IMG/VR virus record: IMGVR_UViG_2869924733_000001
Coordinates: 1 to 10,216 of that record
Length of the DNA: 10,216 nucleotides
Direction: 5' to 3' (one strand)
Origin: a virus
Lineage: Duplodnaviria > Heunggongvirae > Uroviricota > Caudoviricetes
Made by a program: the position numbers and the translations under genes. The notes beneath the pieces were generated by a model, which was not told the DNA's origin, did no database searches, and was given only the letters and a program-made list of their open reading frames with translations. Positions within the stretch are counted from its first letter, which is position 1. Each line of letters opens with the position of its first letter. Shown one piece after another: positions 3,055 through 10,216 of the stretch.

Positions 3055-3260
3055 TACTCACCCCCATGAGGCTGATTCATGCCAAGCGCAGCGCGTAAAT
3101 GACTGCGTACCATCCAGCCGACTGACGGCTTCACCATGCACAACGGATCAAGGCCGACTTTTTTCCCTGCCTCTGCGTTCTCCTCAAAGCGCGCATTAAG
3201 TGCGGCGATAATATCGGGGCTGATGTACACGGATACACCGCCCGGCTTCTGTGTTCCCAT
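3054..3260 (-). CDS. Small hypothetical protein (68 aa) upstream of and translationally coupled to the capsid gene
   Basis: ATG at 3260 preceded by GAGGAA at 9 nt; its TAA stop overlaps the gpE-like ATG (TAATG). Track ORF extends to ATG 3326, which lacks an RBS. Confidence 0.45.
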   Translation of the reverse strand: MGTQKPGGVSVYISPDIIAALNARFEENAEAGKKVGLDPLCMVKPSVGWMVRSHLRAALGMNQPHGGE

Positions 3261-3312
3261 AAATGAGATTCCTCTTTGACTAAAAAACAAACATAACGAA
3301 AAGTCAGCCATG

Positions 3313-3342
3313 ATTTTAATCATCATTGCATTTTTTGCAATG
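3313..3342 (-). promoter_or_regulatory. Candidate sigma70 promoter of the capsid operon with overlapping palindromes
   Basis: Minus strand: -35 TTGCAA (3335-3340), 16-bp spacer, -10 TAAAAT (3313-3318); -35 embedded in inverted repeats CATTGCA-N5-TGCAATG (3324-3342) and TTGCA-A-TGCAA (3335-3345). Confidence 0.35.
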
Positions 3343-3439
3343 CAATTGACTGTTATTGCAAATCATGAAATCATCATGCCGTGGTTTTAATCCTTGTACC
3401 ACAGAGTCATTCAGCATTAATCACGTTAGCGGTATGAAA

Positions 3440-3471
3440 TCCCCCGGAACCTCATCCCGGGGGATTTTTTT
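3440..3471 (+). terminator. Plus-strand intrinsic terminator hairpin (half of a bidirectional pair)
   Basis: 8-bp stem UCCCCCGG / CCGGGGGA, 9-nt loop, followed by T7 (3465-3471). Confidence 0.45.
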
Positions 3472-3475
3472 GCGC

Positions 3476-3503
3476 ACAAAAAAGCCGGGAAAAATCCCGG
3501 CTT
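3476..3503 (-). terminator. Minus-strand intrinsic terminator ending the replication/SSB operon
   Basis: 9-bp stem AAGCCGGGA / UCCCGGCUU with 4-nt loop, followed on the minus strand by UUUUGU; 15 nt downstream of the SSB stop. Confidence 0.55.
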
Positions 3504-3517
3504 CTGTCACTCGTTGC

Positions 3518-3940
3518 TTAAAACGATATGTTATCCCCGTACGGGGCATCATTTCCCGCCTGTTGTTTTGCCCTGTTCAGTGCGTCAGTAGCCTGGCCCT
3601 GCTGGCCTTTTTTGCCGCCCGGTCGCGCCGTTCGCGCACTGATTACGCTGTCTGCGATAACCTGCCAGCCCTGCCGCGTTTCGCCGTTCTGGCCTGTCCA
3701 CTGGCTTACCTGTATGTTACCCGCCACGCTCACCAGTTCGCCTTTGTGGTGTCTGGCCAGTGCGTCGGCCTGTCTGCCAAACGCCAGGACGGATAACCAC
3801 ATCGTCGCCGTTCCGTCATCGGCCTGGCTGCACGGCAGGGGAACCGCCATACTCGCCATCGCCATTTGTGTCCCTTTGCTGGTGGTCTTTAACTGCGGGT
3901 CAGCCACCAGCCGCCCGTAAGCCGCTATCTGTGCTGTCAT
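3518..3940 (-). CDS. ssb: Single-stranded DNA-binding protein (SSB-like, OB fold)
   Basis: N-terminal GRLVADPQLKTTSKGTQMA resembles the SSB motif; conserved W and G-x-V positions; Gly/Gln-rich linker; acidic C-terminal tip DAPYGDNISF comparable to DDDIPF of E. coli SSB; ATGA overlap with upstream ORF. Confidence 0.7.
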   Translation of the reverse strand: MTAQIAAYGRLVADPQLKTTSKGTQMAMASMAVPLPCSQADDGTATMWLSVLAFGRQADALARHHKGELVSVAGNIQVSQWTGQNGETRQGWQVIADSVISARTARPGGKKGQQGQATDALNRAKQQAGNDAPYGDNISF

Positions 3941-4197: not shown

Positions 4198-4391
4198 CTC
4201 CCCACTTTTACTACCCACTTTTTGAAATTACCCAACGTCTCCCCACTTCTTTTTTTTGTGATTCTAACGTGATGTTTTTCAATGTATTTTTTATTCCCCA
4301 CTTTTTGGGGTATATACAGGTGAGAAAGTGGGGAATCGCGTTTCAATTTTGTTAAATTCCCCGCACTCCCCACTTTTACTACCCACTTTTT
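4198..4391. repeat. Iteron array, putative replication origin: 26-bp perfect direct repeat CTCCCCACTTTTACTACCCACTTTTT (4198-4223 and 4366-4391) plus further CCCACTT copies
   Basis: Seven copies of CCCACTT(T) (six direct, one inverted at 4327-4333) in about 195 bp; inverted pair CCCCACTTT / AAAGTGGGG flanks AT-rich GGTATATACAGG; immediately 3' of the replication protein gene. Confidence 0.5.
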
Positions 4392-5805
4392 ACAGTGGGC
4401 GCACGTCATCACCGTCAATAGCAATAACGCCATCACCTTCCAGCTTGTACAGCCAGCGCCGGAAGTGTTTCATCTCATACCCCAGCTTTTTCATATCATC
4501 GCGCAACAACGGAATTGTGCATTTATCGCCGCGCTGTGTGCGTGAACGGATACAGCCCCATAGCGCGGCATGATTCTCCGTCTTGTTCCCGGCTTCCTCG
4601 ATGCGCTCCAGTTCAACGGGTGGGCGCGGTTTATCCACAACCACCAGCGACGTGATTAACTCCCCGTCAGTGTCGGTAAAAAGCTCCACCACACGTAAAT
4701 CGTATGCAGCCTCTTTCAGTTCCTCCGCGTCCTTCATTTTGGTGCAGGAGATAACCAGGGCTTCACTGTCTGCACCTTCACGGCGAATACGGTATTCAGC
4801 GTCCAGAGATGCACGAAATGCACTGGAACCACGCGCTCCCTTTGTTTCATCCTTGCCGGAATGGTGAACCACCAGCACCGTGGACCCTGTGCGTCGTTTC
4901 AGTTCGTCACATCCACGGATAAACGCCCCCATATCCCGCGCGTCATTTTCATCATTACCGCCAAAACACCGCGCCAGCGTATCCAGAATAATCATGCGTA
5001 CCGGTTTACCCGTTTCCCTTTCAACCTGGCGGGAAGCGATGACCATTTCATCGACATCAAGCGGGACTGCCGGAAAAATCGGGCGGTTTACCAGGTACAG
5101 ATTTTCCACCCGTTTATCATTAACGATTTCCCATGCCTTGATACGGCGGGGGACACCAATGCCACCTTCACCGACAACATACATCACCGAACCATGCGCC
5201 ACCCTGCGGCCTCCCCAGTGGCGACCCGTGGCAACATGACACGCCCAGGAACACGCGAGGAACGATTTATAGGAACCGCTCGCGCCGTATGTGCTACACA
5301 ATGAATTAGCCGGAATCACGCCTTTAACGACATAATCAAGCTGTGTGTCGTACCCTGCAGATCCAATGCTCATTGGTAGCGTGGTTTTTCGCTGGCTGTA
5401 TTGCTCGTCAGTAAGAATTTCCCCGCGCTCTGCCTGTTCGCGGATCCGTTGCAGGTAGTCGTGCCAGTTCTCCAGCTTCTGGCTGTGCATTCCATCAGGG
5501 TAATAATTCGCATCCCGTACACCTGCCGCCGCCAGCTTTTGCCCGATAGCATTAATATTTGACGGCTTGATGTGGCCTGCCTTGTACAGCCGGACACAAT
5601 AGCGACCATCGTCGATAATTTTCAGGTCTGCCAGTTCGTCAAGCTGGCTGTCTCCAAGCCATACAGGCGGAACATTGTCGCCAGCAAGTCGCCCGTCCTG
5701 CTCCTGCCATTGTTTCGCGTGCGCCCAGGCATCACTACCCGCAAAAATAATGACTTCGGTCATTTTGTCGTGTGGCTGTTTTTTTAAGTTCGGTGCCAGT
5801 TTCAT
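4390..5805 (-). CDS. Replication protein: primase/helicase-type, RecA-fold (AAA_25 / RepA-like) ATPase with N-terminal toprim-like region and C-terminal putative DNA-binding region
   Basis: Walker A YGASGSYKSF, Walker B VRMIILDTLA, and LVVHHSGKDETKGARGSSAFRASLDAEY typical of RepA/DnaB-like helicases; ATG at 5805 with AGGGG 9 nt upstream; ATGA overlap with upstream ORF. Confidence 0.85.
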   Translation of the reverse strand: MKLAPNLKKQPHDKMTEVIIFAGSDAWAHAKQWQEQDGRLAGDNVPPVWLGDSQLDELADLKIIDDGRYCVRLYKAGHIKPSNINAIGQKLAAAGVRDANYYPDGMHSQKLENWHDYLQRIREQAERGEILTDEQYSQRKTTLPMSIGSAGYDTQLDYVVKGVIPANSLCSTYGASGSYKSFLACSWACHVATGRHWGGRRVAHGSVMYVVGEGGIGVPRRIKAWEIVNDKRVENLYLVNRPIFPAVPLDVDEMVIASRQVERETGKPVRMIILDTLARCFGGNDENDARDMGAFIRGCDELKRRTGSTVLVVHHSGKDETKGARGSSAFRASLDAEYRIRREGADSEALVISCTKMKDAEELKEAAYDLRVVELFTDTDGELITSLVVVDKPRPPVELERIEEAGNKTENHAALWGCIRSRTQRGDKCTIPLLRDDMKKLGYEMKHFRRWLYKLEGDGVIAIDGDDVRPL

Positions 5806-6316: not shown

Positions 6317-6569
6317 GGCTCACCACCTCCGGGAATTTTCTTCTGTAACGCGCCTCTGCAACATATTCCGCATAGTCCGACGCAATATTGAGAATCTCCG
6401 CACCCTCTGACCTGTAGCCACTGGTATTGATAAGAAAAAATGCGGCTTTTATCATGTCAGCAACGCCCAACAATGCGTCTGCTTCGTGTTCCGGTGCGCC
6501 ATCAAATTCCTGTTTCAGGGCATTAAAACGATCATCACGCATAACCCCCCCCATTTTCACAATCAGCAA
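6309..6569 (-). CDS. Hypothetical protein (up to 86 aa; start uncertain: 6569, 6554 or 6542)
   Basis: ORF from track; candidate starts overlap the end of the upstream Icd-like ORF and a G8 tract (6545-6552); 8-nt overlap with downstream ORF start. Confidence 0.4.
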   Translation of the reverse strand: MLIVKMGGVMRDDRFNALKQEFDGAPEHEADALLGVADMIKAAFFLINTSGYRSEGAEILNIASDYAEYVAEARYRRKFPEVVSHE

Positions 6570-6969
6570 TCAGAATGGCTTTGGCCTCATTCAGTGCCAT
6601 ATCAGCGGTAAGCTGTGCGTAGGCCAGCGAATGCGGGATTATTGCCCCTGTATATTCCGGCTCTCTGGTAATGTGTTTTTCTGCGGTTGCTGCCGTGTGT
6701 GAAATATCAATCAGCGCGCGCATCAGTGTTTTGATGGCTTCGGCGGCTGCGTCCGGACGGGTGTTATTGCACATGGTGCACCCCTGACGAATACGGGCGG
6801 CGAATACCATCACACAGCCATCAGGAGATTGCTGGCGTGCTTCCTGTTCGCTGGTGGCCTCAATGGTAATCACGCGCGGTTGTGCTGTGCTCAGGGCGAT
6901 AAAACGCCAGATGTATTTATTCAGGTTGTGCGAGTCCCGCCCTTGCGGGTGTGTGGTATGATTTCTCAT
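6535..6969 (-). CDS. Icd-like protein (P4-type host cell division inhibitor family, tentative), first gene of the leftward operon
   Basis: ATG at 6969 with GAGG 5 nt upstream; N-terminus MRNHTTHPQGRDSHNLNKYIWRF...FAARIRQG resembles Icd-like proteins of P4-type prophages (from memory); it is the 3' part of the spurious 476-aa track ORF. Confidence 0.45.
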   Translation of the reverse strand: MRNHTTHPQGRDSHNLNKYIWRFIALSTAQPRVITIEATSEQEARQQSPDGCVMVFAARIRQGCTMCNNTRPDAAAEAIKTLMRALIDISHTAATAEKHITREPEYTGAIIPHSLAYAQLTADMALNEAKAILIADCENGGGYA

Positions 6970-7064
6970 AGCTACCTCGATACTCTCGTTATCGTTGGTG
7001 GTTAGAAGCCCGTTGGTGTTGGTAGCACCTGCGGGCTTTGTCTTTTCATCGATTACCTCAATAA

Positions 7065-7148
7065 AGGTGTCAGCCACTATACTAGTAACAGGTGTCAGCC
7101 ACGTCAATAGTGTTTTTCCATTTTCTTGTGTGTATACTGTCAGCCACC
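7065..7148. promoter_or_regulatory. Divergent promoter/operator region with three copies of (A)GGTGTCAGCCAC
   Basis: Repeats at 7065-7077, 7090-7102 and 7137-7148; leftward promoter -35 TTGACG (7102-7107) / -10 TAGTAT (7079-7084), 17-bp spacer, with repeats in the spacer and at +1; rightward -10 TATACT (7133-7138) abutting repeat 3. Confidence 0.55.
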
Positions 7149-7168
7149 TAATAACAAGGAAATCAGAT

Positions 7169-7348
7169 ATGGCAACGAAAGCAGTTAATGGAAAATCCAA
7201 AAAACTTGAGGCACGAGTCCCCCATGCAATAGCTGACGCTGTAGAAAATTTAAAGGAAGAAGGTGAAAGCACTGGGCAATTTATCGTTTCGGCACTTGAA
7301 GGCGAGATCAAACGCCGCCAGCGTCGCAAGGCCAAAGAGCAGGAGTAA
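7169..7348 (+). CDS. Ribbon-helix-helix (CopG/Arc-like) DNA-binding protein, candidate repressor of the switch
   Basis: 59 aa; AAGGAA RBS 7 nt upstream of ATG; beta-strand KKLEARVP then two helices (HAIADAVENLKEEG, STGQFIVSALEGEI), basic tail; only convincing plus-strand gene. Confidence 0.6.
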   Translation: MATKAVNGKSKKLEARVPHAIADAVENLKEEGESTGQFIVSALEGEIKRRQRRKAKEQE

Positions 7349-7405
7349 CCATCACCAGCGCCGTGGTGTGAGTAACTACGGCGCATTGCTATGCAGGACA
7401 ACACA

Positions 7406-7558
7406 ATGACCGATAAAGAATTGACCAAAACATTATCACCGGCACGGAAAAGACGGCGCAGAAAGATAGAACATGAATCAGAAAGATTCGCGCCATGTGC
7501 TTTTGCCCTCGAGCAATTCCTTAAAGAGTACAGGGAAAAGCGCTCATTGCAGGTATGA
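7406..7558 (+). CDS. Small basic ORF (50 aa), possibly co-transcribed with the RHH gene
   Basis: ATG 7406 with AGGA 7 nt upstream; protein MTDKELTKTLSPARKRRRRK...; below the track length cut-off; followed by a plus-strand terminator about 100 nt downstream. Confidence 0.3.
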   Translation: MTDKELTKTLSPARKRRRRKIEHESERFAPCAFALEQFLKEYREKRSLQV

Positions 7559-7658
7559 CAACGAACTGAACCAGACTGATTGCATTGCCCACCAGCCGCA
7601 AATGTGGCATTGTTGGCGATGCTCATGCGTTGGGGATAACGCGAAATTTGTGTCGCAG

Positions 7659-7686
7659 GGCCACCGTGACTGGTGGCCTTTTCTTT
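7659..7686 (+). terminator. Plus-strand intrinsic terminator (end of RHH / small ORF transcript)
   Basis: 7-bp GC-rich stem GGCCACC / GGTGGCC, 6-nt loop, followed by TTTTCTTT. Confidence 0.55.
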
Positions 7687-7739
7687 ACCTGTTATCCGGC
7701 AATAGTGGCGCTTCTTCACACAGTTGATATAATTCCCCT

Positions 7740-7810
7740 GCACTGATCCAATTTTTTCGCAGCAGGTTAATTGTTCGCAAGGGCGCTCCGGTAACGGGGC
7801 GCTTTTTGTT
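7740..7810 (+). ncRNA. Candidate small RNA (about 70 nt) between a consensus extended -10 promoter and an intrinsic terminator, convergent with alpA
   Basis: TGaTATAAT at 7725-7733 (-10 hexamer matches consensus 6/6); terminator stem GCGCTCCG / CGGGGCGC with GTAA loop (7783-7802) plus TTTTTGTT (7803-7810); no ORF in between. Confidence 0.35.
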
Positions 7811-7828
7811 ATGTGCATCGCTCCCCCC

Positions 7829-8041
7829 TTACGCCGTTTGCGTCCTGCGAGTGGATGCAAGATAAGCATCGAGATCAGAGCGCATATACAGCACTTTGCG
7901 CCCCAGCTTATGGAAAGGGATTTTTTCTTTACCAGTACACGCCCAGTTAGCAAGAGTCTGGACACTTACCCCCAAATGCTCGGCGGCTTCTTTGCGGGTC
8001 ATTTTTTCTTGAGAATTGATTACGTTCACAAGTAACTCCAC
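7829..8041 (-). CDS. alpA: AlpA / excisionase-family HTH DNA-binding protein
   Basis: MTRKEAAEHLGVSVQTLANW...KIPFHKLGRKVLYMRSDLDAYL matches the excisionase/AlpA HTH pattern; track start is GTG 8041 (AGGT RBS), alternative ATG at 8002. Confidence 0.75.
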   Translation of the reverse strand: MELLVNVINSQEKMTRKEAAEHLGVSVQTLANWACTGKEKIPFHKLGRKVLYMRSDLDAYLASTRRTQTA

Positions 8042-8174: not shown

Positions 8175-8795
8175 TTATGCGTACTCTGGCGGGATCACCA
8201 GTTCTGAGTTTTTGTACTTTTTGTCAGGTGGTGGCGGCGGGGCTAGTTTTTCACTTTTTATCCAGCACTTGATTGTTTCCTCGCTTATCCGGCCCTCATA
8301 TCGACGCGACAGCTTCGCAATCATTTTTGTTTTGGATAGTGCTGGTTCTTTCTTCCATGTGGCTTTCATGATGGCGACTATCTCATCATGTAAATAGTGG
8401 CGGGGACCGGAGGCGGCTTCACTTCTTCTTCTTTTGATAACACCATCAGATATTAATCTAATAACTTTGCCACCACCTTTTGAGGCTATACAGGCTCTTT
8501 TGTATACCCATGAAAGATCCTCAGCAGTATTTTTATATCCAAGTAGCTCTAGTATTAAGATGGATTTCAGAAATACATTAGCACTATGACCTATGTTTAT
8601 CTCCCCTGTTTTGTCTAACGCTAAATATCCTTCCTTATCAATCCTTGCTGCTATTCTTTTCCTTTCTGCTTTTCTATAATATTTAAATTTATCTTTCAAT
8701 TCATACACATGCTCGCTCATTTCCTTTTCGACTTGCTCAAGATAATCATATAATTCAATTCTTGTATCATCATCCACTACATCCCAAACTTTCAT
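8175..8795 (-). CDS. Hypothetical protein (206 aa), AT-rich 5' half, translationally coupled to the integrase; candidate accessory/cargo gene
   Basis: ATG at 8795 overlaps the integrase TGA (ATGA); codons for about the first 110 aa lie in visibly AT-rich DNA (8460-8795) while the 3' half is of ordinary composition; proline run PPPPP near C-terminus; no family recognised. Confidence 0.6.
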   Translation of the reverse strand: MKVWDVVDDDTRIELYDYLEQVEKEMSEHVYELKDKFKYYRKAERKRIAARIDKEGYLALDKTGEINIGHSANVFLKSILILELLGYKNTAEDLSWVYKRACIASKGGGKVIRLISDGVIKRRRSEAASGPRHYLHDEIVAIMKATWKKEPALSKTKMIAKLSRRYEGRISEETIKCWIKSEKLAPPPPPDKKYKNSELVIPPEYA

Positions 8796-10216
8796 TTAGA
8801 CGATACCTCTAAATTTTTGTTTATGATTTTGAAAATTAATTGGCGTTTTTCATCATCACTCATGCTCTCCAGTGCAGAAAGCAATTGCGCATCAATAGAT
8901 TTTTTACTCTCCACCAGCCCGGCATGTTCCAGAATTGCCCGTTCTATCCGTGACGCTGGCTCCAGCAGTTCATCAGCACCAAAATGTAAATACCCCTGCG
9001 TTACGTCAGCACTTCTCATAGTGCGGTGATTCATCAGGCGCTTGAGGGTGTAATTACCCACGCCCACCAGTTCGGCAACCGTTCCGAACGTCCGGCGCGC
9101 ATCGTGCCATTTGAATGGTACAGGGGAGAGCATTTCATCGTTCGACTCTGGGACGGTAGCCGCGCTTATCCGGTCTATGATGTGCCGTGTTTCCTGAATC
9201 ACTCCCTTTGCTCCAGGAAACACCAGTACATCATCAGCGTTTTTTATTTTCAGCCTGCGGCGGAACATTTCCCGCAACGTATCGGTGATCGGTAGCTCGA
9301 GCGGATCCCCGTTTTTCGTGGTATCTATCCAGAAAAAACGACCGCCCATATTCACGCGATCCCACGTAAGGCCAAAAATTTCTGATTTTCTCAGTCCGGT
9401 AAAAAGTGCCATTTCCACGGCATCACATACCGTCACCGCTATATCATCCCTTTCCTGTTCGCCCTGGTCACGTACAGCAGCTACAGCAGCAAACCAGCGG
9501 GGAAAATCATGCAGGCGGATACGTTCCGTTTTTCTTACCGTTCCGTGCCACTGTCGTTTGGTACTCAGTACCAGCGTCGGCGGATCCGGTAAAAGAGTAT
9601 TACCCGCATCATCACGGTAATGATCATGCGCAAACCGACACACGGCACGCAGCGCACGCGCCCATAAATCGGCCTGTGCCTTGCTTCCTGTGCCAACCCC
9701 AGCCCGTAACGTGGTTTTATCAGCACCGAACCATACAGCCCCGTTTGTGACAGCCTTATGCCGCTGTTCCACCCGTTCGCGGGTAATACTGGCGAGGGTA
9801 TGGGCCATCCAGTCACCGGAATAATTCTGTAATATGCTGCGGTACTGTTTTTCTGTGGCGGGTTTCAGGCGGTGGCCACGATTTTTTATGTAGGCTTCAA
9901 GCGCCTCATTCAGCGTTATCATGGCCTTGTTGTTCGTGCGCTTCGCTATGTTCGGGTTTTTCCCCGTTGTGGCGACCTCTCCAAGGAGTTCCATAGCTTT
10001 AGCCCTGGCATTGTCCACACTCAGATCGGGAAAACGCCCCAGCGTTGCACGAATAAATTTTCCGTTACGCTTACGGGAAATGCAGAAACTTTTCACACCA
10101 GACGAACCCACACGGACACGCAGCCCGTTAACCTCCGTATCACCATATTCGACCTGTCCATGTTCCGGCGTTGGCAGTTCTGCAATTTTTACTTTAGAGA
10201 ATCTGAATAATTTCAC
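8792..10216 (-). CDS. int: Tyrosine recombinase / integrase (P4-type, N-terminal arm-binding domain); 5' end at window edge
   Basis: N-terminal arm-type domain (KIAELPTPEHG...GLRVRVGSSGVKSF...RATLGRFPDLSVDNARAKA); catalytic-domain motifs LRKSE, HDARRT, NHRT...GYLH; ORF starts with GTG at the last window base, so the true start may lie beyond. Confidence 0.9.
   Translation of the reverse strand: MKLFRFSKVKIAELPTPEHGQVEYGDTEVNGLRVRVGSSGVKSFCISRKRNGKFIRATLGRFPDLSVDNARAKAMELLGEVATTGKNPNIAKRTNNKAMITLNEALEAYIKNRGHRLKPATEKQYRSILQNYSGDWMAHTLASITRERVEQRHKAVTNGAVWFGADKTTLRAGVGTGSKAQADLWARALRAVCRFAHDHYRDDAGNTLLPDPPTLVLSTKRQWHGTVRKTERIRLHDFPRWFAAVAAVRDQGEQERDDIAVTVCDAVEMALFTGLRKSEIFGLTWDRVNMGGRFFWIDTTKNGDPLELPITDTLREMFRRRLKIKNADDVLVFPGAKGVIQETRHIIDRISAATVPESNDEMLSPVPFKWHDARRTFGTVAELVGVGNYTLKRLMNHRTMRSADVTQGYLHFGADELLEPASRIERAILEHAGLVESKKSIDAQLLSALESMSDDEKRQLIFKIINKNLEVSSK

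Follow-up and report, generated by a model that had tools for sequence, protein, structure and literature searches.

The window analysed here, a stretch of 10,216 nucleotides, carries all of its large genes on the minus strand; these also include homologues of SSB, Phage_cap_E and the lambda-type head decoration protein D. Among them lies a small gene unit that is read in the opposite direction. The genes and gene ends that frame the locus are the following:

4390-5805, minus strand: AAA_25/RepA-type helicase gene, the end of the contiguous operon that starts with the Icd-like gene
6535..6969, minus strand: Icd-like (kil-like) gene, which opens the leftward operon; the operon runs via DUF4222 to the helicase
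7169..7348, plus strand: ylcI-like gene, coding for a 59-aa protein of the YlcI/YnfO family with a predicted ribbon-helix-helix (RHH) fold (from an AlphaFold2 model)
7391..7558, plus strand: orf55 (phrog_21027), downstream of ylcI, a small, basic ORF of unknown function
7657-7680 and 7779-7806, plus strand: terminators, which end the rightward unit before alpA; there is no leftward T-run
7829..8041, minus strand: alpA-like gene (HTH_17/excisionase family), transcribed towards ylcI and the operators
8792-10216, minus strand: tyrosine integrase gene (Phage_integrase and Arm-DNA-bind_3)

With an integrase, alpA, a replication module and late genes in the same orientation, the window has the make-up required of a PICI (phage-inducible chromosomal island) or cf-PICI (capsid-gene-carrying PICI), an element of ~10-15 kb, although the window is cut and the ends and att sites of the element remain undetermined. 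The order of integrase, alpA, replication and late genes is the published layout of Gram-negative PICIs (PMC6092414, PMC10111431). Among 5426 complete E. coli genomes, related DNA was detected in 1706, with the same gene order and a location beside tRNA-Pro or allE, and a YlcI-type cassette is detectable in 616 of the 5426, with a best match to the window of 99%. Two further features of the element were seen in passing. Between the integrase gene and alpA, a 206-aa ORF (8175-8795, minus strand) shows a weak match to HTH_32 and a C-terminal PPPPP stretch, and relatives with 30-52% identity are found in five of the fetched loci. Past the SSB gene, two tandem terminator-like hairpins (3434-3554, minus strand) give sub-threshold Rfam matches to ncr1175 and SorY, the only ones in the window at E <= 1, which probably reflect no more than a generic resemblance to terminators.

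The 59-aa product of ylcI is a member of the YlcI/YnfO family, as it matches the NCBIfam model NF041551 (YlcI_YnfO_N) over residues 9-50 with 61.9 bits against a cut-off of 30, and RefSeq labels its homologues as YlcI/YnfO family proteins. An AlphaFold2 model based on 22 homologues (mean pLDDT 87) contains an extended segment at residues 11-18 followed by helices at residues 19-28 and 35-58, so that the strand-helix-helix fold of about 45 residues, the criterion for the RHH MetJ/Arc/CopG superfamily, is met. On the other hand, the protein has no Pfam match at E <= 0.1 and hence no match to a Pfam RHH model, no PDB chain was matched by sequence at E <= 10, and a tblastn search against 50,697 phage records gave no match. 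The sequence-only reading, which had called the product of 7169..7348 an RHH protein, is thus upheld by the predicted fold, but not by any match to sequence models, and membership in the superfamily rests on the fold only because no curated sequence model or PDB sequence matches. With this restriction, we predict that the protein is an RHH DNA-binding protein whose dimerisation and DNA binding are inferred, and that residues 11-18 (KKLEARVP) form the DNA-reading strand. No functional study of YlcI, YnfO or DUF3950 proteins was found in the literature. A C-terminal motif, EIKRRQR (residues 46-52, window positions 7304-7324), is invariant across all of the specificity classes described below and could serve for oligomerisation, for contact with the backbone or for the binding of a partner such as a helper-phage protein. 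Directly past the ylcI stop codon, at 7358-7384, lies a hairpin, GCGCCGTGGT / ACTACGGCGC, without a T-run on either strand.

Upstream of ylcI, the intergenic DNA holds three repeats and two divergent promoters, which are arranged as follows:

7067..7077, plus strand: O1, box GTGTCAGCCAC, at -102 from the ylcI ATG, just downstream of the leftward -10 and over the expected leftward start
7079..7107, minus strand: leftward promoter P-left, with -35 TTGACG (7107-7102), a 17-bp spacer and -10 TAGTAT (7084-7079); the TTGA is invariant in the family
7092..7102, plus strand: O2, box GTGTCAGCCAC, at -77, a position that hardly varies in the family; the box falls within the spacer of P-left, and its last base is also part of the -35
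7133..7138, plus strand: rightward -10 TATACT, nearly invariant in the family, with a T-rich tract upstream
7137..7147, plus strand: O3, at -32, an imperfect box that reads cTGTCAGCCAC, is joined to the rightward -10 as TATA[CTG-N5-CAC] and covers the expected rightward start

A repeat scan of the window detected three exact copies of TGTCAGCCAC on the plus strand (7068-7077, 7093-7102 and 7138-7147), which are spaced by 25 and 45 bp. Copies 1 and 2 widen to the 13-mer AGGTGTCAGCCAC, starting at 7065 and 7090, and copy 3 reads aCTGTCAGCCAC, with 10 of 13 bases matching, or 10 of 11 in the GTG-N5-CAC register; in this 11-bp form, the boxes take the positions -102, -77 and -32 from the ATG of the gene at 7169-7348. 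When one mismatch to the 10-mer is allowed, five matches occur in the 10.2-kb window where 0.58 are expected, a number that none of 200 dinucleotide-preserving shuffles reached. Together with the positional conservation of the boxes, these shuffles rule out chance as the origin of the repeats. A P2 Ogr/P4 Delta-type site (TGT-N12-ACA) was rejected as well, since 17 bp separate the two halves of the sole TGT...ACA pair in the region.

In a promoter scan, P-left was the only sigma-70-like site in 6800-7500. Copy 2 occupies its spacer, copy 1 starts one base past its -10 and spans the expected start site, and copy 3 overlaps the last base or two of the rightward TATACT. For the rightward promoter, neither the promoter scan nor the family alignment revealed a recognisable or consensus -35, and its activity is uncertain for this reason. 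Most of what had been read from the letters alone is confirmed by these data, namely the two identical 13-mers 25 bp apart, the leftward -35 and -10 with copies in the spacer and over the start site, and a repeat abutting the rightward TATACT. The third copy is indeed present as an exact 10-mer, but its distance in register is 45 bp and not 46, and the leftward gene that had been given an edge at 6970 is there but starts with the ATG at 6969.

The arrangement is not peculiar to the window. A scan with the family alignment, using one genome per species, yielded 66 loci and, with the E. coli loci added, ~70 loci in all, which span more than 20 enterobacterial genera (including Xenorhabdus, Pectobacterium, Yersinia, Serratia, Proteus, Morganella, Dickeya, Kosakonia, Edwardsiella and Hafnia) and have the same three-box layout. 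With the start codon as the reference point of the alignment, the upstream regions of nearly all loci show one layout, and the boxes of the window lie exactly on it. In the family, O2 is a GTG-N5-CAC box at -77 that is followed by an invariant TCAA, which is the TTGA of the leftward -35. O1 is found between -98 and -113, over or downstream of the leftward start, and is direct or inverted depending on the class. O3 is found at -32, where the first G is replaced through the fusion to the nearly invariant TATACT, giving TATA[CTG-N5-CAC]. The O3 core has one to three additional mismatches in many classes, which makes it probably the weakest of the sites. The spacing between O1 and O2 varies (22, 23, 25 or 35 bp), and this, together with the flips in O1 orientation, speaks against a single, fixed geometry of cooperative binding. 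The GTG and CAC arms are invariant in the boxes, as is R16 in the protein.

As the repeats are direct, irregularly spaced and adjoin a replication operon, they might be taken for iterons of a replication origin, or for a packaging or recombination site, rather than for operators. In every class, the boxes keep a fixed register with the -35 and -10 hexamers as well as with the ATG, which speaks against this idea, as do the inverted O1 copies and the fact that there are only three copies, one of which is fused to a -10. In addition, the PICI origin has been placed downstream of the primase/rep gene (PMC6092414). We consider that this explanation can hardly be correct.

The operator reading makes the protein and the boxes partners, and between the groups of loci the central five bases of the boxes change together with protein residues 11-18. 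The pairs of strand and core are:

KKLEARVP: core TCAGC (the class of the window)
KRFDVRVP: core TCGGA or TCCGA
QMTT(V/I)RIP: core AAATA
QQLNARFP: core AATCG
LQVSVRLP: core AACAC
QQIVSRVP: core AATGC or CATGC
(K/Q)KMQARVP: core TGCTC
QKLQARAP: core GACTC
QSLKSRVP: core TGGCC
QT(I/V)AARVP: core TTGAA or TTAAA
QSLTARIP: variant boxes GTGTAAG / CTTACAC

Mutual information with the core, calculated over 48 distinct protein/box combinations and not corrected for phylogeny, is highest for alignment columns 14, 12 and 13 (z 14.2, 11.8 and 11.5, respectively, against shuffles), and for columns 12 and 14 the residue is fully predicted by the core. Judged from these alignments, strand residues 12-14 and the core bases would define about 20 specificity classes, and the covariation is what one would expect from an RHH strand of which every other residue reads the box. 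For a reading of major-groove bases by the paired N-terminal strands of a dimer, the covariation and the invariant R16 are only indirect evidence. Part of it will be due to linkage, because the protein and its boxes are encoded next to each other.

Mosaic elements allow linkage and function to be told apart. When the window is compared with the Xenorhabdus loci of its class, identity amounts to 97-100% over the 33 positions of the boxes, but to 57-67% over the remaining 79 upstream positions and to 64-69% over the gene itself. These Xenorhabdus loci mostly have no detectable homologues of the Icd-like protein, AlpA, orf55 or other neighbours of the window, with one locus containing an AlpA-like match. 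The reverse situation is found in E. coli Nissle 1917, in which the Icd-like gene and orf55 are 94% and 100% identical to those of the window, respectively, but YlcI is only 51% identical and the boxes differ (GTGTAAG/CTTACAC). A third case is a mosaic gene in the O157:H7 strain 2571: its last 90 nt match the window in 80 of 90 positions, whereas the first 90 nt and the boxes are those of the QQLNARFP/AATCG class, which is known from Pectobacterium and Dickeya. On the basis of these three comparisons, the DNA-reading half of the protein and the boxes travel as a unit, independent of the neighbouring genes. These comparisons of sequences argue that the association between protein and boxes is functional, and the boxes appear to follow the YlcI-like protein and not the genes around it.

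This bears directly on the question of which protein binds the boxes. It is conceivable that they are bound by AlpA, by the Icd-like or eta-like product, by orf55 or by a host or helper-phage factor, and that the YlcI-like protein is a mere neighbour. AlpA has been shown experimentally to activate genes of E. coli PICIs (PMC6092414), the boxes lie on the path of transcription coming from alpA, and binding data exist for none of the candidate proteins. However, the same boxes accompany the same YlcI strand in the Xenorhabdus loci, most of which lack detectable homologues of AlpA, the Icd-like protein and orf55, and in Nissle 1917 the boxes are different and match its different YlcI even though Icd and orf55 are near-identical to those of the window. 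Moreover, the box cores differ among ~20 classes within single genera, and a common host or phage factor could therefore not read all of them. We attach very little weight to a different binder and continue with the YlcI-like protein as the one that recognises the boxes.

The O157:H7 elements, including the prototype cf-PICI EcCIEDL933, show what else can occupy this place. At the position of ylcI they carry different, unannotated small ORFs (in locus L069 at 3190-3440 and in locus L071 at 8740-8990) with sub-threshold matches of the Arc/HicB type, and the flanking DNA closely resembles that of the window. The ORFs are preceded by repeats of their own, two copies of GGTAATTACCAT in one strain and two copies of GGTGACCAC in EDL933; they also have the same terminator on their upstream side, and once more an antisense frame is open across them. 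With different cassettes at the same place, the cassette looks like an exchangeable module. The hairpin that follows the ylcI stop codon in the window is also kept after the unrelated RHH-like ORFs of L069 and L071. As for orf55, it is 96-100% conserved in E. coli elements with differing RHH cassettes; which strand is coding at this position, that of orf55 or that of the antisense frame, is ambiguous.

A small RHH gene followed by another small gene might also be a type II toxin-antitoxin-like pair, with the RHH protein as antitoxin and orf55 as toxin, in which case the repeats would only serve autoregulation and their overlap with P-left would be incidental. This seems improbable to us. The 66 loci from outside E. 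coli are all without a detectable homologue of orf55, no toxin family is matched by it, and in O157:H7 the same orf55 follows an unrelated RHH-like gene. The feature that is kept in all classes is O2 in the spacer of P-left, beside the invariant TTGA.

In accordance with the layout, the covariation and the mosaics, we propose that the YlcI-like protein recognises the boxes and acts as a repressor of P-left. We consider this likely, even though no binding or repression experiment exists. Against it stands the published finding that in E. coli PICIs AlpA alone induces the island (PMC6092414), so that a repressor is not known to be required. Dimers of the protein would recognise the 11-bp GTG-TCAGC-CAC boxes, each box probably being bound by one dimer. 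Occupation of O2 in the spacer and of O1 over the start site would switch P-left off, as a protein bound between the -35 and the -10 and over the start is expected to block the promoter, and the operon for the Icd-like protein and the replication helicase would remain silent. Since the weaker O3 overlaps the -10 and start of the ylcI promoter, negative autoregulation of ylcI is predicted. The sequence-only reading, in which a repressor shuts off the replication operon and regulates its own gene, gains support from the conserved layout, the covariation and the mosaics. The geometry, the predicted fold and the covariation are results of this analysis; binding, repression and autoregulation are inferences drawn from them.

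One might argue instead that the YlcI-like protein is mainly an activator or an architectural protein, which stimulates its own weak promoter from O2 or positions RNA polymerase for an antisense RNA, and that leftward repression is unimportant. The rightward promoter combines a strong -10 with the lack of a -35, and the centre of O2 lies ~48 bp upstream of the expected rightward start, from which it follows that positive autoregulation of ylcI from O2 is possible, if speculative. Nevertheless, binding between the -35 and the -10 and over the start, which is the most conserved feature of the family, should block P-left, and activation of its own promoter would add to repression and not replace it. 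A role of the protein without leftward repression therefore appears very unlikely, and repression of P-left remains the reading that we prefer.

The stretch around ylcI and the operators may carry more information than this, and three more features are needed to describe it:

6535..7818, minus strand: long open (eta-like) frame, in frame with the Icd-like gene; its ATG at 7818 lies 10 nt past the alpA stop and is preceded by the Shine-Dalgarno sequence GGGGGAG
7005..7050, plus strand: conserved intrinsic terminator, consisting of a hairpin (7005-7039) and a T-run to 7050
6954..6962, plus strand: candidate extended -10, TGgTATGAT, over codons 2-5 of the Icd-like gene; it was read by eye, without a statistical test

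The frame of the Icd-like gene is open on the minus strand from 6535 to 7965, and GGGGGAG is found between the alpA stop codon (7829-7831) and the ATG at 7818. The long frame is antisense to orf55, to the whole of ylcI and to the operator region, and P-left lies within it. Among 68 distinct loci, this antisense frame is without a stop across ylcI in 66 and in the 150 bp upstream of ylcI in 58, whereas the two remaining frames have a mean of 2.7-3.7 stops across ylcI and of 4.1-4.4 in the 150 bp upstream, and no more than three loci have them open. Codon choice in ylcI reflects this: a T at the third position, directly in front of a CA codon, is seen in 4 of 296 cases, compared to 847 of 3586 elsewhere (p = 3e-27). 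Such a T is avoided because it would create an antisense stop, so that the frame is kept open by the choice of codons. The phage family phrog_6196, annotated as 'transcriptional repressor', aligns to the long frame from 25 residues upstream of the Icd-like ATG (6970-7044, minus strand), which means that its members in the phage database are called with an N-terminal extension encoded in the leader.

Satellite P4 has a long eta frame that is coupled to its alpA homologue, contains an internal promoter and ends with a nested kil gene, and translation of eta from the upstream promoter prevents termination (PMC10111431). The window meets the criterion for this P4-type arrangement with a long ORF after the alpA homologue, a nested kil-like gene and an internal promoter. 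However, no C4, isrK or other immunity RNA was detected in the window with Rfam at E <= 1, nor was C4 or isrK found at the gathering score in L001, L002 or L069, and a tblastn search with the Icd-like protein against the 50,697 phage records gave only one record, which is not P4, and no homology to P4 kil or eta. The locus of the window is not a P4-type RNA immunity system.

The plus-strand terminator between the Icd-like gene and O1 may belong to an RNA of a different kind. Its hairpin and T-run recur in almost all loci, and the hairpin is more stable on the plus strand in 62 of 66 loci, by a mean of 6.3 kcal/mol. An alignment of 34 sequences shows compensatory changes in 10 of 14 pairs, with many pairs being G-U on the plus strand only. 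The candidate extended -10 is present in the loci with the same Icd type and reads TGgTATAAT in L001 and L002. An RNA of 83 nt that runs from about 6968 to 7050 is predicted to fold into two hairpins (-36.2 kcal/mol, z -5.8) and would be complementary to the icd Shine-Dalgarno sequence and ATG. This suggests that the terminator is the 3' end of a ~83-nt antisense RNA on the icd leader, which could act as a second brake on the Icd-like gene. For the other Icd type, no common promoter for such an RNA was found, and the antisense RNA thus remains a lead.

How the repressed state would be left is more speculative. A leftward transcript activated by AlpA and translated through the long frame would cross ylcI and the operators; such a read-through transcript could override the repressor, while convergent transcription would silence ylcI. 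As AlpA is a demonstrated auto-activator and inducer of E. coli PICIs (PMC6092414), this is the most economical model, and induction is probably driven by AlpA-activated leftward transcription, an inference as well. A more far-reaching version would be a toggle based on convergent transcription, with the RHH cassette lying antisense within a translated, eta-like frame that is coupled to alpA. In the quiescent state, YlcI would block the internal promoter and the cis-antisense RNA (6968-7050) would block the icd leader. Upon infection with a helper phage, AlpA-driven transcription, which translation of the long frame would shield from Rho, would cross ylcI and the operators, with the outcome that synthesis of the repressor is extinguished and the island is committed to replication. 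We put this reading forward tentatively, and as a whole it is rather unlikely to hold. If it were true, the ~20 classes of box and strand would represent true immunity groups, by which several satellites could share one cell. Co-resident loci in one genome always differ in class (16 pairs, none of the same class), a result that is not significant (p = 0.09).

Taken together, the cassette is very probably a swappable repressor/operator module of enterobacterial phage satellites (PICIs), with binding being inferred. Whether Gram-negative PICIs have a global repressor is unclear (PMC6092414), and we found no RHH repressor of a PICI in the literature. Induction of these elements is now explained by the activator AlpA alone, and the locus provides a concrete and widespread candidate for a repressor. 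The ~20 pairs of strand motif and box on a fixed GTG-N5-CAC frame would amount to a natural recognition code for a minimal DNA-binding fold, which could be useful for the design of orthogonal repressors. In addition, the antisense nesting, with its measurable selection at synonymous sites, is a clear case of genes on opposite strands that constrain each other.

The family namesakes are YlcI of the DLP12 prophage and YnfO of the Qin prophage in E. coli K-12, which share the NF041551 match, and K-12 YlcI also has the strand-helix-helix arrangement. In contrast to the gene of the window, K-12 ylcI is divergent from nohD and lies near packaging genes, its function is uncharacterised, and inspection of its upstream region revealed no GTG-N5-CAC boxes. 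Among satellites, the Stl/Rpr repressors of Gram-positive PICIs (PMC6092414) are similar in that the repressor gene is divergent from the satellite replication operon; however, Stl is a large HTH protein that is inactivated by helper-phage proteins, whereas the window encodes a 59-aa RHH protein, and activation by AlpA exists in addition. The omega repressor of inc18 plasmids (PDB 1irq, 2bnw) also uses direct or inverted asymmetric repeats, but these are contiguous 7-bp heptads on a plasmid, and the boxes of the window are 11 bp long and 22-45 bp apart. In its genomic architecture, the locus is closest to the P4 immunity region (eta/kil, PLE, CI RNA), with which it shares the ORF directly past alpA, the internal promoter and the in-frame nested kil/Icd-like gene, and in both the induced state probably consists of read-through that comes from the upstream promoter. 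It differs from P4 by the RHH gene and protein operators that lie antisense within the ORF and by the lack of a detectable CI, C4 or isrK RNA.

In its proposed mode of working, the locus is closest to the immI region of phage P22 and to lambda OR. In immI, the RHH repressors Arc and Mnt act at the overlapping divergent promoters Pant and Pmnt. P22 is a phage and not a satellite, its proteins have no detectable sequence similarity to the window protein, and it represses an antirepressor unit, whereas the window locus would repress the Icd-like/replication operon; a tetramer binds one dyad operator in immI, in place of the three separate 11-bp boxes found here. Lambda OR is a tripartite operator. 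Unlike its repressor, the window protein is of the RHH and not the HTH type and has no RecA-cleavable domain, and its cooperativity and capacity for activation are unknown. The likeness to lambda OR lies in the arrangement, with two perfect sites on the outward promoter and one weaker site on the promoter of the putative repressor itself, and in the many 'immunity' specificities that are built within one common framework.
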